Shown piece by piece: positions 2,187 through 51,608 of a DNA stretch of 64,000 nucleotides (the stretch's first letter is position 1; each line of letters opens with the position of its first letter). The position numbers and the translations under genes were made by a program. The stretch is from positions 744,001-808,000 of the forward strand of contig NW_026250415.1 of assembly GCF_024521635.1 (NCBI RefSeq), given 5' to 3'. The notes beneath the pieces are model-generated. The model did no database searches, was not told where the DNA came from, and worked only from the letters and a program-made list of their open reading frames with translations. Source of the DNA: Tricharina praecox. Lineage: Eukaryota.

Positions 2187-5100
2187 TAATTTTTCGTTGC
2201 TTATTCCTCGTCACCATATGTACCGGTATGTATTACGATGGCTCCCGCGTCCAAATCGCCCGCCCCGCCCGCCCATCATCATCATCGTCATCGTCATCAT
2301 CGGCTGTCTGGACTCTGGAACCGTCGATTTGCCCCTGTCGTTTATTGGACTGGACTGGGACTGGGACTGCCTGGGACCCTTCTGGCAAAAGTATCCTGCA
2401 CCATGCTATGCCATGCAGGTACCTGCAGTTCAAATGCTGGATATATGATCTGTTGTTTTATATGGAATGTGCCACAAGGGTGCAGTGAAGCCTGAGTGCA
2501 ATCGAAGACAAGACTGGGCTTGTATGTAGGTAGGTAGAAGGCAAGGTAGGTCTGTAGGTGCTCTCAGAGGACTACCGCCAAGCAACGCTTAGTTAGGGCC
2601 TCTAACTCCGAGCCTTATGTTTTCTTCCAAATTCCAATCGTCGTGCGGATTCCGAAACCCCGATATATGTAGAGTATTTGTGGTGACTCCCTCGGCATGT
2701 GTACTTGCACCTGTGCCGATCGCTTCGGCTCGGAAAAATAACATAAGCCCGGATGGATGCGACCGCGCGCGCGGCACGTTTGGAGATCCCAACAACTCAA
2801 TCGTCAGCGTATGATGTATGATGTACCGTCTACATACATACATAGAGTGGGGGTGTCGGTCGGATAGGTACCTCACTAGTCACCACCATCGCCGCCGCGT
2901 AGTACAAATAACTGGTCCGAGCGTCTATCCAGCCCACTTACCTACCTAGTATCAACTAGGGAAAGTAAGCCTGGATAGAGCGACTGCCAACTCTCAGGTT
3001 TTGTATGTATGTAGAGTAGGTATGGCAACTATGTAGTTCCCTAACCCGAGCAAGCACTGTCTTCGAATCGGCACTGGTAGGAGAGATTGCCGGATCGGAT
3101 CTTCTCATCTGGAACCTTTCGAGACATGTTTCTGGCAGTTAGTTTCCAGTGGAGAACCTCCAGCTTCAGGAGTAGGATGATACATACTAGTAGTTACTTG
3201 GGTACACACTCTATCCCGCGCAATAGTCAGCGGAGGTCATTCTAATAATAGGTATACAGTACTCTAGAGTCTATAGTAGACCAGGAGAAGCCGGAAGGGA
3301 AGCCAGTGGTAGTGGTTAGAGCAGGCTTGCGGCAAACAAGCGAGGGCTCTGGTGATGCCGCGTATGTTGTTCGTTAGCCTAGGGGACTGGCGTGTATCAG
3401 AGTCGACATTCACAGAGACTGCGTTGTTGCATGGGATCGTATGTGTGTACTCTACATACGGGGGCGGAAACATTTGCGACCCGACACGTGCATTCAGACG
3501 GGTGTACCTATGGTGGTATGAGCGCAGTCCGGGCCAACGGAAATACGGATTTTTCTTTGGCCACGCATTGAGTCGACGCCGTATTAATGCTCGGGTTTAG
3601 TATTTTGCCGCCCGGGCAAGGACATCTTTCCCGGAATGGGTGGTGGGCTCGATACGTGACGCCTTGCAGCAGAATCCTTCAGGGTTTCCCGCGGATCGAA
3701 GACGTAGCTGTTGGGCTTGATGGCTGCACCATAGGGGACCCGCAACAGCGAGCAAGCAAGAAAACTCAGCTGGTGGTGAGATGCGACGAGTGAGCCCCGG
3801 TGAAGAGTTTTTTTCTTTCTTTTTCTCTCGCCTTGGCAACGATACGAGCGGAGTGGAGTGCATGTAGAGTAAAAAACGTTCCACTGTCACATCAAATACG
3901 ATGTGTACTGTACAAAGTTCATCCATGATCCCGCGGTGATCCCGCAGCGAGCGGAGGGTACTATTTATAACTGGCACGAGCAGCGAAGAATTAAACTTCC
4001 TCTCCATCATGCCCCACCGTTTAGGCCTGCTCGATTCAACGACGCAACTCGGGCTCGTCATATTGCTCAACGTCTGCATCTGCTGTGGAGCCAGGCAAAC
4101 TTCGTCGGGAGCGAGCATGCAGGAATGCTGCGGGACGAACCAACCATGCCTCCTGCCTCACTGCGGCGGCGTCGGGCGGGCTCAGAGGTGGATGATGGAA
4201 TCGGTCGGCGAGCCTCACTGCGTTGGAAAGTTTGTAGACAGCGCTTGTAAGAAGTAAGCAAGTACCCAGGTAAGCAGCAAACAGCGCGTAAAACTTTGCC
4301 AATCGGCAGCTAGGTAGGTAACTATTTCTCACCGTTTACCGTTCGCCGCCGCCGCCCGCCGTGGCCGACTCCGCGCAAGGGAGGACATGGCATATACCAG
4401 TACTTTAGAGTAACCCATCCAGCTTCCGTATGTATCTACGAAGATCCCCGCACTGTGCATGCAGGAGATCGGAAAGTCTTAGTCCGGGACCACTTGTTGT
4501 TCAGGGCCGCGATCTCCGGTTGTGTGTAGGCACTAAGCTGTCTGAGAACGGAGGAAACGCGCGGTCCGGATGAACGTCCACGTGGATTGAGACTGAGACT
4601 GAGATTGAGACCTGAGACCTGAGATTTCACGAGTTAAGACGGAATCGATTGAATATGATTGTACATCGCAACGTCACCGCTGCTTTTCTTTCCTTTGCCG
4701 TAACACCGGCAGGAAGGAATATCGTGGGTATGTACATACTTCGAAGTACACCGCATGTATCCCTGTAGAACAGCTGCCGTGGTGCTTTGCTTCGCCATTC
4801 GTTCCCGTGTTCGAGCTCGTTGATGCACAAGCTGTCCCAACATTCCGGTGAGCCGTGAGCAACAGACGGATAGCAGCTTGCGGGGGGATGTGTTTTTTTT
4901 TCTCTCGGGGAGTGTGCAGGCGGCGGGTGTAGAGTAGATGTACTCGTGACATCGCCAGCCTCGGCTGGTGCTACACGCAAGAGCCAATACTCTAGAGTAG
5001 AGTAGGTAGAGTAGAGTAAAGTAGAGTACTTCAAGGTTTCCAGGTGGAATCGTGCACACCCCACTCCCTTCCTCCACTCACGCCACAGCAAAGAAGATGA

Positions 5101-45260: not shown

Positions 45261-47045
45261 GGTGGTAGTAATACTCGGGGTAGTGTTGTGGTGGTGGGAC
45301 AACTGCTCGCCAGAAATCGCAGTTCAGCCACAAGGTAAAATAATACCAGCCGGGCGCTCAGTTCGGAGAAACAGCTGACCTTCCAAGTGATCTCGGGGGT
45401 CGAAGAAGATAGTAACTGTTGCGGACGAATGGTACTTATATGCGGGGCTTCTGGATGTCGAAGAAGTCGGAACCGTGACTGGGATTAGCGATTGCTGACG
45501 ATACAGGTGGATATGATCGTTGCTGGTACGACGCGCGAGGTGTTGGCGGGGCAGCGATGTTTAAGAACCCAAGCTGTAACTGAGAAGTGGTGGAGTGATA
45601 ACTGGTACTAGAAGTGGCAAGGGTGGGAGGAGTAGCGAGCAAGGAGAAGAAGGGGAGAAGGAGGGAAGGTGTGATGAGCGTGATGAGCACCACAGCAACT
45701 TCAAGGGACGGAACTCGATTATTTGCGGGTCCCGATCACCGGTTATCCCGCGGTCCAGAAGCCCTAGCGAAGCTGGTGGTAAGACGTATGCCAAGACAAC
45801 TTGATTCATGTCATGCCACTCAGCTAGTCCTGATTAGGGGCTGAGCTGCCTCGATTACTAAGGAATATCTGCCTAGGTAAATTTAACTACACTTCGTCGG
45901 ATTTCGGCGACAAGGTTGAAGGGAGAGCAGCTGCAGAAGACGGGAATCACGGGACGAGACGCACCAAGCACTCTGGCCAATTTACTTATGTATGATACAT
46001 ACGAGAATTCAAAGTCCCCGCAGAGGACTGACGGTTCGTTAGATCGGATGAGATTCGAAGGCGATAGTTACAAAACAAAGGAGTAAAGCCAGCCTTACGA
46101 CCGGAGAACATCTGGAGGCCATACATACATTTGGACCCTCGTTGATTGTCGCCGCTTTGTGCGCCTAGCTGAACGCACGTTTCCTCGGCATTCATTGCCC
46201 GCATCATGATAGGCTGGTAGTGTAGAAGGCCCGGCAGTCGCCACAGTCTACCTGGAGACGCTGTATGCGAAATAAACATGATGCCGCGACTCGAAGCCGT
46301 AATTTATTCTACTCCAGTTAGTGACAGAGAGCCATGTGACATTCCATGACTCGACTTTCGCGGAGTCCTGCTTACCTAAGTGCTTAGTCGAGAAAGTGTG
46401 GGAGACTCGAGTCTCCACTGTTTGGACCCGGTCGGACAAAGGAAGGCAGTTCTGGGTGCACGACTCGAACACCACACCAAACCACACCATGTCGCGAAAA
46501 TAAACCAAGCTTGCTCCTCCAAGATGCGTCTCGCGTCTTCACGTGGAGAGCAAGTCGTACAAGACCATAGAAAGCCATTTTTCCTTTTTCGAGGTGTCTC
46601 CGACACCCCTGCACACCATCTCTTGAGGAGCCGCGAGAGCCGCCTTCAAAATTCACTGCCCTCATCTTAGCGACAATAGCTTCTCTGCTCTCCTCCTTTC
46701 CCACACATCTCCAAATCCCTTGCTGTCGACTCTCCCCAAGCTACACGCTGGCTCCTCTCCTCGCAAACTCAGTCTTCGTAAGTAACGCTGCCTATTGCTC
46801 CCGAATCTCATAGCGTTTCGTAGTATCTTGGCCCCAGCTCTATTTGGCAAGGTACCTACCTACCTAAACCGGCCCGTACTAGGTCTGGAGCTATCGGGGC
46901 TCGCTACATCGGCCACCTCCGAAATCCTTTGATGATTTGATGCTTGGACATCTTCAGCCGCTCCGTCGTTCTGTACCAACGTCTAGCTCTCAGCCTTCTC
47001 ATGAAAAATGACTGCTAACACCATCGCTTCTTATCGGCTGTCAGG

Positions 47046-50000
47046 ATGTTCCAAGATCAAAATGCGGAGACTTCACTTACGAGCGGTAGTAAGAGGCTAA
47101 AGCTCGACACTCCTTCTACTCCGTCGAACCCTCCCTTCGTCGATAGCTCCCCAGCAGCAGCAAAGCCGAACGATGCTTCCATCACTACTGCAGCCACGCA
47201 GCAGCAGCGACAGGAGGTGCCGAAAATGTTTCCACTCGGAGAACATGCTACAGGTGTTGGTGGTGGTGGTGGTGTTGGTGGGGCTGGTGGGGCTGATGGG
47301 GCTGATGGGGCTGATGGGGCTGATGGATACTTTCACAAGCCTCCTGGAAATACTGCGTTGAGCGTGGGAGGTGGATTGCTGCGTTCGCCGGGAATGCCGG
47401 GAGCATCGGAGGGTGACTCGAACGGGAGTCTGCAGCAGTCCGAACTCCAACCGGACCCGCTGCCACAACCGAACGGAGGACAGCAGGATCACCAGCACCA
47501 GCAGATTCAACACAACGCACAGCATCATACTCATCCCCGACCACTAGATGAGCAGGAGAACGCACGCCTACTCGAACCTATCAAGAGTTTTCTCTCGTCC
47601 GCCGTCAAACCGGAGCCGGATGTCATCGACCTGACGGAGGATGCCGATGATGACGTTGCCGTCACCGAAATTCCCAAAGTTCAACCAATGGAGATTCCAA
47701 AGAGCTACGTCTGTTACGGAATAATCGTAGGCAAGATCAATGCCAACCGAGTGCCCGTCTTCCCAGTCGGCCGCGAACATCTCCCGATGTTCATCAAGAT
47801 AGTTCGCGCGCCAAATCCACTGTCGCTCGTTGTGGATACGTACGACTGCCATGATTCGCAATTTGGCTACGTGGAGTTGAATACTGCACGAGTAATTGTG
47901 CCATTGATTGATTTCCGCACGTTTGTGGTGGAGCCTTACATGTATGCTCTTCCCAGGCAGCAGCCCCCTACCAACACTGTTGTTTCCAACCAATACCGCT
48001 TCTTTTTCAATGTCTACGGGCCGGTGACGGAGGCTAGAAAGGTGGTACATATCGCCACACAGCAGGGCACAGTCATTCAGAAGCCTTACAAGAGCTATTG
48101 CAATACTAGTGCTCCTTACATGGACCCGTATGTGACAACCACGACTAGGGCTACTTCGTCAGCATCCCGTCCGAGTGGCTTTGCCGTTATTACTCGCACG
48201 GCAGACGAGATACGAGCCGATGTCAACAAGGTGTTCGAAGGGTTGGATCAAGCCGAAAATCTACCGGAGATGGACGCGGATCCTCGGATCAAGACGCCAC
48301 TCCTGAAACACCAGAAGCAGGGTCTCTACTTTCTTACAATGAAAGAGCAGGAGAGAAACTACGATGACAATGATGCAAACAACACGCCAGTGTGGCGCAA
48401 GAAGGAGAAGGGCGGGCAAACGTGGTTTTACCATGTGATCACCGGCCAAACCGTCAAGAGACGGCCACCAGATGTACTTGGCGGTATATTGGCGGATATG
48501 ATGGGGCTGGGAAAGGTTGGACATCTCACTTCCTAGGCAGCGACAGGTAATTCATGCCATAGCTAACATCATAAAAGACCCTACAGATCCTGTCGCTCAT
48601 AGTCTCGACCCTGGAACTTTCTGAGGAATTCGCGAAAGGCCCAAAGCCTCGTCAGTACACTGTCAAGGACAACAAAGAGCCATTACCACCTAGCATGAAT
48701 GCAAAGACAACCCTGTTGATCAGCCCGCTGAGCACGATTAGCAATTGGGAAGAACAGATTCAGGCTCACGTACAAGATGGGGCCTTGAAGTGCCATCTCT
48801 ACCATGGTAACAAGCGCGAATGTGACCCCAAGGTTATCGCTGGATACGATCTCGTAATCACAACCTACCAGGTGATCGCGAGCGAATGGTCCAAGCACAT
48901 CAAAGATCGCGACTATGTCAGCCCGGTGCAGCAGATAAACTTCTTCCGCATAGTTCTTGATGGTAGGTTTCCATTTCGCTTCTGTGGCGCTACAAGATGC
49001 TAACATTGCCATCAGAGTAAGTACAATTTATACATGACGGGCTCAGTGTCGGTTTTTTTGAACTGACAATCATTAATAGGGCCCATATGATCCGAGAACA
49101 GAACACTCTTCAGTCGAAAGCGGTGATAGCGTTGCATGCTCAGAGACGTTGGGCGGTAACTGGTGAGTGGTATCCCATATGATTGGCTTTGACGGCCCTC
49201 TGAGTGGTTTCGAACAGGTACTCCGGTACAAAACCGCCTCGATGATCTCGCAGCTTTAATGAAGTTTCTTCAGCTCAAGCCGTTCGATGACAAGGCTGTG
49301 TTTCATCAGTACATCGCGTCACCCCTCAAGAGTGCCGAGGACAATAGCCTTCGCTCCCTGCGACTCCTCGTTGACAGCGTTACCCTGAGGCGACGGAAAG
49401 ACAAGATTGACCTTCCGCCTAGGAAGGATCAGATAGTTTACCTTCAATTCAGTACGGCGGAGCAAGAGATCTACGATGCAACGGCGAAGCAATCTTCCAA
49501 ACGTGTGGATATGGTTGCGAAACAAGGACACATCGGAGGAAAGAATTACGTTCATATCCTACAGATGATTCTCCGGCTTCGCCTCATCTGTGCTCATGGA
49601 CGTGAGTTGCTCGGAGACGAGGATGTTGCCGACCTTGCCGGTCTCACTTCTTCTGACGCTATTGACGTTGATGAACTTGATGACGAAGGTCCGACGAATC
49701 TCTCGGCGAAGCAGGCATATCAGATTTTCAGCCTGATGAAAGAGACAAATGAAGATAACTGCTCGGTCTGCGAGAAGAAAGCGGTGTACAAAGAACCTGT
49801 CCTGACCGTTGACGAGGGTATCAACTTCAAGCCCGAGGACAAAGGCAAGGACAAGGAATCGGACGAAAAAGACCAGCCGAAGGGCTCCACTACAATAGGG
49901 TTCCTGACTCCATGCACCCACATGCTTTGTGAGAGCTGCATCCCGGCCTACACGGCCAGGATCTCGGGCAACTTTCAGCCCGGCATGCGCGCCGTCTGCC

Positions 50001-50800
50001 CGATCTGTACACTTTATGGAAGGATCAGTTTCTTCGAGCTAAAGTCTGACGAGCTGAATGAGCACCTTACCGGTGCCAACGCCTCCAAAGTAACGAAGAA
50101 GAAGGACTTCAAGTATCGTGGACCGAGCACCAAGGTCAAGGCACTCCTCCAGGCTCTGCTCGAGAGTCGTGAAGAGGGAACACCGGAAGATCCGATCAAG
50201 AGCGTTGTGTTTTCGTGCTGGACCTCCCACATGGATCTCCTCGAGCTCGCGTTCCAGAATAACGGCATCAGCTATGTTCGGCTCGACGGCTCGCAGAGTC
50301 GTATGCAGCGAAGTGCCGCTATCGCGCAGTTCCGTGATACGCCGGCTGTAGAAGTCATCATGGTTTCGTTGATGGCGGGTGGCTTGGGGTAAGAATACAT
50401 CCATCCATCCATCCACCCTGACTGGTTGCGAGAAGTTTCTAACGGTGGCACAGCTTAAACTTGACGGCAGCCTGCAGGGTCTATATGATGGAACCTCAGT
50501 GGAATCCGGCAGCAGAGGCACAGGCGATCGACCGAATACACCGCTTGGGCCAGAAGAAGCCGGTGATCTGCGTTCGCTACATCATGGCGAACAGCTTCGA
50601 GGAGAAGATTCTCAAGATTCAAGAGAAGAAGAACAATCTGGCGAATATCACCATGGAGCAGGGAAAGCTGTCGAAGGCGAAGTTGGCGAAGCAGAGACTG
50701 GAGGTTTGTTTCCTTGCCTGGCCTTGCTTGTACTCTGGGGGAAGATGTGAAGCTGACTTTCTTGCAGCATTTGAAGGACCTTTTCAGCGACAAGAAGTAG
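47046..50800 (+). CDS. Rad5/Rad16-type SNF2 ATPase with inserted RING finger; exons 47046-48515, 48578-48962, 49016 (1 nt), 49080-49162, 49218-50388, 50454-50703, 50768-50800
   Basis: LLKHQKQG, GGILADMMGLGKT, ITTY, RIVLDEAH, WAVTGTPVQN, LRLRLICAH, RING CSVC..PCTHMLC..C..CPIC, KSVVFS, RLDGS, GGLGLNLT and QAIDRIHRLGQ; an upstream exon cannot be excluded because an acceptor lies at 47044. Confidence 0.92.
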
Positions 50801-51608
50801 ATTTTCGATTTGATTTGATTGCAGTATTTTCAGTGTTTTGCAGTGTTTTTCTTCATATGGCTGGGTTTCGTCTTGCGTTTGTATCCGGTTACAATGGCTG
50901 CCCTCTATCACACGTTTTTTCCTTGTTTGCTGTTTGCTGTGTTCGTTTTTTCAGGGCGTTGCAGAAGGTATCTTTTGCATGGGGTAGCTATCACTGCGGG
51001 AGGCGTTGGGGTGTCGGGGTGTCGGGAAGAAGTGAGCGGGCGTGACGCATGCGTGGAATGTGCTCTTTGATTGATTGATTGGTTTGATGTTTGTTGATTG
51101 ATTGTGCCGTCTAGAAATCGTTAGGATGATAGGGATGGGTTTACGTGGAAATGGCGAATTTGTCCGGGGATTGCATTGCAATGGTGCAGGATGATGATGG
51201 GTTGGTTGGTTGATCGAAGATGAATAGACGTCAGCAGATGAAGTTACTTTGAAATGGCCCTATTGTTTTGGAAGTGTAGTGGCGGCCACGGGGAGTGGAG
51301 TGGAGTACATAGCGGACGAACGCATACCATTGTAGATACCATGTGGCATGCGTAGAGGTCTAGAATTAGAGGGGTGAAGCGGGACCCTTCCGGCTGGCCA
51401 CACACGCGCACACAAGTAGCGCTTCACAGGCTCGACTCGACGGGAAAGCCCGGTTGACGGCTAGCCAGCAACCAGCCTATGTAGGACGATGACACGACAC
51501 GATCATGTTGTATCACTCGTGAATATATCCGCTCAGTACATACTAACACTCAAAACGGCTTTCCAGAGACCTCAGACCATATCTCAATCCAGAATGCATT
51601 ATTCCCCC

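Follow-up and report, generated by a model that had tools for sequence, protein, structure and literature searches.

A transcript-supported single-nucleotide exon in the motif II glutamate codon of a predicted SNF2/RING ATPase gene of Tricharina praecox

Results

A stretch of 64,000 nucleotides (nt) from the cup fungus Tricharina praecox, a Pezizomycete close to Trichophaea and Sphaerosporella (contig NW_026250415.1, positions 744,001 to 808,000; hereafter the window, in whose coordinates all positions are given) carries a nuclear gene, predicted to encode an ATPase of the SNF2/RING type, in which a codon for the catalytic glutamate is divided by two introns lying one base apart. That base, A49016, is very probably a genuine and constitutively used single-nucleotide exon, flanked by two separate U2-type introns. 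The smallest exon possible is thereby found with transcript support, and it is found in the catalytic Glu codon of an ATPase. The Glu of motif II (Walker B, DEAH) is required for ATP hydrolysis in SNF2 ATPases.

Read directly from the sequence, the upstream exon terminates in ...GATG, with its final G at 48962. It is followed by intron 2a, in which a GTAGGT donor, a CTAAC branch motif (branch A at 49003) and, 12 nt beyond this motif, a CAG acceptor are present. The lone A comes next, and then intron 2b with its GTAAGT donor, a CTGAC branch motif (branch A at 49066) and, 13 nt beyond, a TAG acceptor. The downstream exon opens with GGCC at 49080, and its first G is the third base of the Glu codon. 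Splicing of G48962, A49016 and G49080 gives GAG, so that the joined sequence reads ...RIVLDEAHMIREQ..., with ...FFRIVLDEAHMIREQ... across the joint. Both introns, at 53 and 63 nt, are of normal size for the gene, the other coding-region introns being 55-65 nt long. The arrangement had been proposed in an initial annotation of this DNA and matches the sequence exactly. Translation also reproduced the stops predicted there for faulty splicing, immediate when the A is skipped and at 49003 when intron 2a is retained. With A49016 omitted the product reads VLDGPI and the frame closes, the stop being met four codons on, and retention of intron 2b leads to a stop immediately past the Glu.

Transcript evidence was taken from the contigs of two public runs from two studies, X1 and X2, which contain 0.86 and 0.84 of the sampled sequence words and which were compared with positions 46500-51500. 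Each run contributed one long contig (3534 nt in X1, 3562 nt in X2), with an identity to the window of 99% or more; the differing letters amount to 0 or 1 across the runs, that of X2 being a single C>T at 47617. Between 48962 and 49080 both contigs pass over 117 bases and keep exactly one letter, an A (recorded as 'both = 0'). This single unplaced letter at the joint has contig coordinate 1924 for X1 and 1981 for X2. Also spliced out of both are introns 1, 3, 4 and 5 of Table 1, with borders adjusted to canonical ones. Since five introns are gone from the contigs, these are derived from mRNA, whatever the label of the library. The mature mRNA retains exactly one base between the flanking exons. 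A Glu codon split at phases 1 and 2, with the one-base exon as its middle base, had been put forward in the initial annotation, and the single A kept in the contigs of both runs bears this out.

Several observations weigh against this interpretation or limit its reach. The RNA label of X1 and X2 is a guess, and their RNA origin was deduced from the contigs being fully spliced. The support consists of assembled contigs. Rare variants are dropped from contigs, and isoforms that retain an intron or skip the A could therefore escape, which leaves constitutive use unproven; the contigs are uninformative on minor isoforms, transcript starts, strand and expression level. The strains behind the two runs may be identical or closely related, and one of the runs is possibly tied to the sample of the assembly itself, so that X1 and X2 do not count as fully independent. 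Finally, the layout as a bare pattern is no rarer than chance. When the whole window was searched for the generic pattern of two short introns enclosing an exon of 1-3 nt, one match, the 49016 site, was found against 0.23 expected, and at least one match occurred in 20 of 100 first-order Markov resamples. What lifts the 49016 layout above chance is that it lies within the sole codon needing it, that it is present in transcript contigs and that it is kept in relatives. Two soil metatranscriptome runs, X3 and X4, gave no match to this part of the window, a result that does not prove absence.

Ten proteins from Pezizomycetes were aligned, and a scan of metagenome contigs with this alignment recovered 79 related loci. 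The D, E and A codons are unbroken in 75 of them (74 by a first motif search and L050 by a looser one), and the site is interrupted in the remaining four. Two of these, L069 and L079, come from independent metagenome assemblies and encode proteins 84% and 83% identical to that of the window. They share its layout, namely G, an intron of 48 or 52 nt, A, an intron of 58 or 59 nt, and G, with the lone A (CAG-A-GT) at 1961 in L069 and at 7294 in L079. All six splice signals are intact in both loci (GTAAGN, GCTAAC, CAG, GT[CG]AGT, AACTGA[CT] and ACAG), and the remaining intron sequence has diverged by substitutions and indels. The other two, L013 and L015, are the same at the D-E-A site and are Trichophaea-like, being 86-87% identical to Trichophaea hybrida. 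There a single 120-nt phase-1 intron is present, and the A is carried by the downstream exon (...TTAG, then AG GCC). An alignment of orthologous loci, which had been recommended earlier as a check, accordingly finds the one-base exon conserved in L069 and L079 and missing from L013 and L015. Three states of one codon are thus documented: no intron (75 of the 79 fungal loci), a phase-1 intron (L013 and L015), and a phase-1 plus a phase-2 intron (the window, L069 and L079).

A separate feature of the Trichophaea-like loci is a 16-nt micro-exon (L013:4238-4253, also in L015), which consists of the last two bases (AG) of the Glu codon, the codons for AHMI and two further bases from an Arg codon. 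In L013 it is flanked by the 120-nt intron (4118-4237) and by a 53-nt intron (4254-4306), the latter of which is missing from the window, L069 and L079.

The contig alignment shows one skip of 117 bases with one letter in it and is, taken alone, silent on where that letter comes from. To this extent it would also suit a single 117-nt intron, with the A brought in from non-canonical sites, by RNA editing or insertion, or as an assembler artefact. We consider this explanation highly improbable. There are 44 ways of getting the observed mRNA from a piece of 1-4 nt within 48963-49079, and A49016 alone among these enumerated sources is bordered by GT-AG introns on either side; no adjacent genomic base is able to supply the A, and every other source needs non-canonical borders. 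The same A is found in the contigs of two runs, CAG-A-GTNAGT and the branch motif on each side are kept in L069 and L079, and in the single-intron lineage of L013 the A is located in the downstream exon instead.

Even less probable is that the gene is a pseudogene or that the assembly is wrong at 49016, in favour of which only the oddity of the layout can be quoted. The contig-supported coding sequence (47046-50800) is open throughout and encodes 1130 amino acids (aa) with all motifs in place, the spliced contigs of two runs are virtually identical to the window, and the independent assemblies of the relatives show the same layout. On these grounds the locus is held to be neither a pseudogene nor an assembly error.

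The motifs of the 1130-aa model are GLGKT at residue 487, DEAH at 618, TGTPVQN at 646, GGLGLN at 1034 and QAIDRIHRLGQ at 1060, and a Cys/His pattern of the RING type begins at residue 828. Two exons matched Pfam SNF2-rel_dom (E 2.4e-15 and 3e-20). The candidate RING between the ATPase lobes scored under cut-off both as zf-RING_5 (26.7 bits, cut-off 27.9) and as zf-C3HC4 (19.7 bits, cut-off 21). For Helicase_C the exon fragments reached 23.1 and 23.2 bits (cut-off 23.5), and the full-length ortholog from T. hybrida, P0002, reached 47.5 bits. With P0002 as the query, the best solved relative is RAD5 (PDB 6l8n, E 3.4e-76), in a match that covers only residues 229-936 of P0002. The RAD5 structure has in common with the encoded protein an SNF2 ATPase and a motif II of the DEAH/DEGH type, and the RING inserted between its two lobes would correspond to the candidate RING here. 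From these motifs and profiles the protein is predicted to be a Rad5/16-like SNF2/RING ATPase. The N-terminal exon (490 aa) matched no Pfam family, and hence no HIRAN domain was found in it, which sets the protein apart from RAD5 and HLTF; orthology with either of these is therefore not established. The closest named proteins are those of T. hybrida (76% identity) and Sphaerosporella brunnea (74%), followed by other Pezizomycetes, and a second protein search returned only the single-exon open reading frame of the window (P0122) and further close relatives, among them P0123 with 90% identity. At the site of motif II, [VI]LDE[AG]H is present in 118 of the 120 best homologs.

The gene model is given in Table 1. 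The intron in the 5′ untranslated region (UTR) stops one base short of the region of the start codon. A short tandem coding repeat of Gly-Ala-Asp units is located in the N-terminal exon at 47246-47290, and the contigs break there. The counterpart of intron 3 in L069 opens with GCAAGT (L069:2104-2109), where GTGAGT is found in the window and in L079, and looks like a GC-AG intron.

Table 1. Structure of the predicted SNF2/RING ATPase gene in the window, with the evidence for each feature (CDS, coding sequence; joints and cuts refer to the contigs of X1 and X2)
Feature	Positions	Strand	Evidence
5′UTR intron, 267 nt, GT..AG	46778..47044	+	joint 46777>47045, one X1 contig only, 30-nt side
First coding exon, ATG at 47046, ends within motif I (GLGK/T)	47046..48515	+	contigs from 47291 (X1) and 47320 (X2)
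Intron 1, 62 nt, GTTGGA..CTAAC..AAG	48516..48577	+	joint 48511>48574, cut +4, X1 and X2
Exon, 385 nt, ends ...VLD plus G (base 1 of Glu codon)	48578..48962	+	contigs; Pfam SNF2-rel_dom E 2.4e-15
Intron 2a, 53 nt, phase 1	48963..49015	+	absent from X1 and X2 contigs; kept in L069 and L079
Single-nucleotide exon A, middle base of GAG (Glu, residue 619)	49016..49016	+	one A in X1 and X2; sole canonical source
Intron 2b, 63 nt, phase 2	49017..49079	+	absent from X1 and X2 contigs; kept in relatives
Exon, 83 nt, G then AHMIREQ...RRWAVT	49080..49162	+	contig piece 49080-49161
Intron 3, 55 nt	49163..49217	+	joint 49161>49217, cut +1, X1 and X2
Large exon with motif III (TGTPVQN), a candidate RING finger and the beginning of Helicase_C	49218..50388	+	contigs, motifs, Pfam
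Intron 4, 65 nt	50389..50453	+	contig pieces 49217-50387 and 50453-50701 adjoin, X1 and X2
Exon, helicase motifs V/VI (GGLGLN, QAIDRIHRLGQ)	50454..50703	+	contigs, motifs, Pfam
Intron 5, 64 nt	50704..50767	+	joint 50701>50766, cut +2, X1 and X2
CDS end, stop codon finishes at 50800	50768..50800	+	contigs; 3′UTR to ~51186-51239

Discussion

The occurrence of this exon implies that a pair of introns can be defined by the fungal spliceosome even when a single base separates their inner splice sites. Introns 2a and 2b each possess their own 5′ GT, CTRAC motif and 3′ AG, and each would be removed as a separate, intron-defined unit. With the acceptor of 2a and the donor of 2b separated by a single base, the two splicing events are most likely sequential. 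The U1 site of 2b (49014-49022) overlaps the AG of 2a, and 14 nt separate the branch point of 2a from the 2b donor, so that simultaneous action of two spliceosomes is hardly to be expected. Either order of removal should give the same product and should leave normal-looking sites behind. Once 2b is removed, a second AG, made of A49016 and G49080, stands two bases past the proper one, and its use would break the frame; it follows from the observed product that the proximal AG is used. The pair differs from a stwintron, for each of its introns is complete at the DNA level and leaves the donor, branch site and acceptor of its partner uninterrupted.

Folding of the window sequence (z = -2.1) predicts a 7-bp helix between 48957-48963, which are the last six exon bases and the first intron base, and 49009-49015, the last seven bases of 2a. 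The pairing persists in L069 and L079 apart from one G-U change, and it would either draw the donor and acceptor of intron 2a together or mask them. Little covariation was seen in the three-sequence consensus, too little for a claim of structure.

One may speculate that the one-base exon is included in a regulated manner, and that skipping, from the donor at 48963 to the acceptor at 49079, serves as an on/off control or a control coupled to nonsense-mediated decay (NMD) of the helicase. The outer donor, of 2a, and the outer acceptor, of 2b, are compatible with each other, the skipped product runs into the stop after VLDGPI, and in plants some isoforms of VPS55 contain the 1-nt exon of that gene and others lack it (PMC8831610). 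Against this, the inclusion form alone is present in X1 and X2, which counts for little since contigs hide minor forms. The short introns of fungi are, moreover, generally intron-defined with little exon skipping, and the six splice signals kept in three lineages fit efficient constitutive use. Regulation of this kind is in our judgement unlikely. An equally doubtful extension would see in the exon a clade-wide, selected device, in which the order of removal is fixed, perhaps aided by the helix, and in which failed or deliberate skipping yields a frameshifted, NMD-targeted message and thereby a splicing control of this DNA-repair-type ATPase at its catalytic residue. If this were true, the single-intron sister lineage would display the birth or the loss of a 1-nt exon in one step.

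The evolution of the intron pair was addressed with a protein tree of 12 rows and 1042 columns. The window, L069 and L079 are grouped with 100/100 support, and so are T. hybrida and L013. Two features of the tree speak against a simple account: S. brunnea is sister to the clade with the 1-nt exon at a weak node only (81/86), and Pyronema is placed beside both groups without resolution, so that the fork was drawn open. As the lineages with the 1-nt exon and with the single intron are sister groups, gain and loss are equally parsimonious and the direction of evolutionary change is left open. Intron 2b may be a second intron that was acquired one base past an older one of phase 1; alternatively, 2b may have been lost precisely in the Trichophaea-like lineage. 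We considered a precise gain or loss of 2b to be the most economical path, because it requires a single step and no intermediate with a broken frame. For the same reason, an origin through insertion of an A at the 3′ border combined with exon skipping was dropped. The recent gain of an intron next to an older one, suggested in the initial annotation, is compatible with the phase-1 intron of L013 and L015 standing alone, but its direction is not settled by the tree.

A fusion of two introns into the 120-nt intron of L013 was also considered but not adopted. The interior of this intron has no significant similarity to the two-intron region, its score being matched or exceeded in 1773 of 2000 shuffles, against 0 of 2000 for L079, which served as the positive control of the test. 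Hints of fusion in L013 are its double length and a CAG/GT at nt 53-57 of the intron, aligned with CAG-A-GT. As to an introner-type origin, no further copy of intron 2a or 2b was found in the window, at 64 kb a small sample, or in the 79 loci. The three states of one codon are seldom seen together, and their presence among a few cultivable cup fungi opens the origin or loss of a 1-nt exon to test.

The exon at 49016 joins a very small published class of one-base exons. Such exons had been described earlier for this stretch as very rare, with Arabidopsis APC11 as a reported case; the rarity stands, and the list of published cases extends beyond APC11 and includes fungal ones. The comparisons that follow are made with the excerpts of the cited papers and extend as far as these do. 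A close counterpart is the 1-nt exon in CYP621A of Fusarium (Nelson & Syed 2026), termed there the first fungal case (PMC12940212). In both instances a fungal nuclear gene takes the second base of a conserved-motif codon from a lone nucleotide between two short canonical introns, and for CYP621A too the base is needed for the frame, is conserved in orthologs, is backed by public RNA reads and was missed by gene models (PMC12940212). CYP621A is a P450 gene of a Sordariomycete, in which the base is the G of a Gly codon in PKG within AG-G-GT, whereas here it is the A of a Glu codon in an SNF2/RING gene of a Pezizomycete, within AG-A-GT. Its proposed origin, base loss and adoption of a cryptic exon, is likewise different, and the excerpted text reports no single-intron relative, while here L013 and L015 exist (PMC12940212).

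In plants, a 1-nt exon was described in Arabidopsis APC11 (Guo & Liu 2015, PMC4674806), and 1-nt exons of APC11 and VPS55 were subsequently followed across land plants (Yu et al. 2022, PMC8831610). These also consist of one base between two U2 introns, are widely conserved, had gone unannotated, and have relatives without one or both introns (PMC4674806, PMC8831610). They differ in that the introns are long and the evidence includes reporter assays and RT-PCR, and none of those described in the excerpts falls in the catalytic residue of an ATPase (PMC4674806, PMC8831610). Long-read annotation of Coprinopsis cinerea contained 13 exons of one nt, spread over 13 genes (PMC12230235), which indicates that such exons recur in fungal genomes when full-length transcripts are at hand. 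This species is a Basidiomycete, and the comparison is one of counts.

Related systems are the stwintrons and the single-nucleotide intron shifts of Pezizomycotina (PMC5587772, PMC6616335). In stwintrons, too, short fungal introns abut or are nested in one codon and are spliced consecutively, and related species gain or lose one of the pair (PMC5587772, PMC6616335). According to the excerpts, the internal intron of a stwintron breaks a splice signal of the external one, whereas here both sets of signals are complete, neither removal creates a signal that the other needs, and one base stays in the mRNA. In recursive splicing, AG/GT ratchet points act as zero-length exons and the flanking intron pieces are removed stepwise. 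A ratchet point resembles the present case in having a 3′ splice site followed directly by a 5′ splice site, and differs in leaving no base, while here one essential base is kept. Among the papers listed by our literature searches, none reported micro-exons in Pezizomycetes or the 1-nt exon of the present gene. What this example adds to the class is its position in a catalytic codon, the one-intron and no-intron states in close relatives, and a probable public mis-annotation in S. brunnea.

The latter concerns P0001, the public protein of S. brunnea, in which VLD is followed by a 22-aa insert starting with VSA and ending with R, and then by AHIIRE. Translated in the reading frame of the exon that follows it, intron 2b of L079 gives VSA...DR and continues into AHMIRE with no stop, the same shape as the insert of P0001. 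Such an insert would be expected if a gene predictor had taken the lone A and the first G of intron 2b as an AG acceptor and had then read through 2b. From the shape of the insert, S. brunnea would appear to share the 1-nt-exon layout. That standard gene predictors will mis-model this gene, as the initial annotation expected, thus finds indirect backing in P0001. This protein appears to carry a spurious insert and to be without the catalytic Glu, so that a functional gene looks inactive, which illustrates how one-base exons break gene models. The C-terminal part of P0001 is also without LNLTAACR, the stretch that links GGLG to VYVMEPQ and falls where the window has intron 4, suggestive of a second modelling error in this gene. 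In P0073, the homolog from Orbilia brochopaga, ...FFRIVLDE is missing before AHTIREQ at about residue 620, and this may be another broken gene model.

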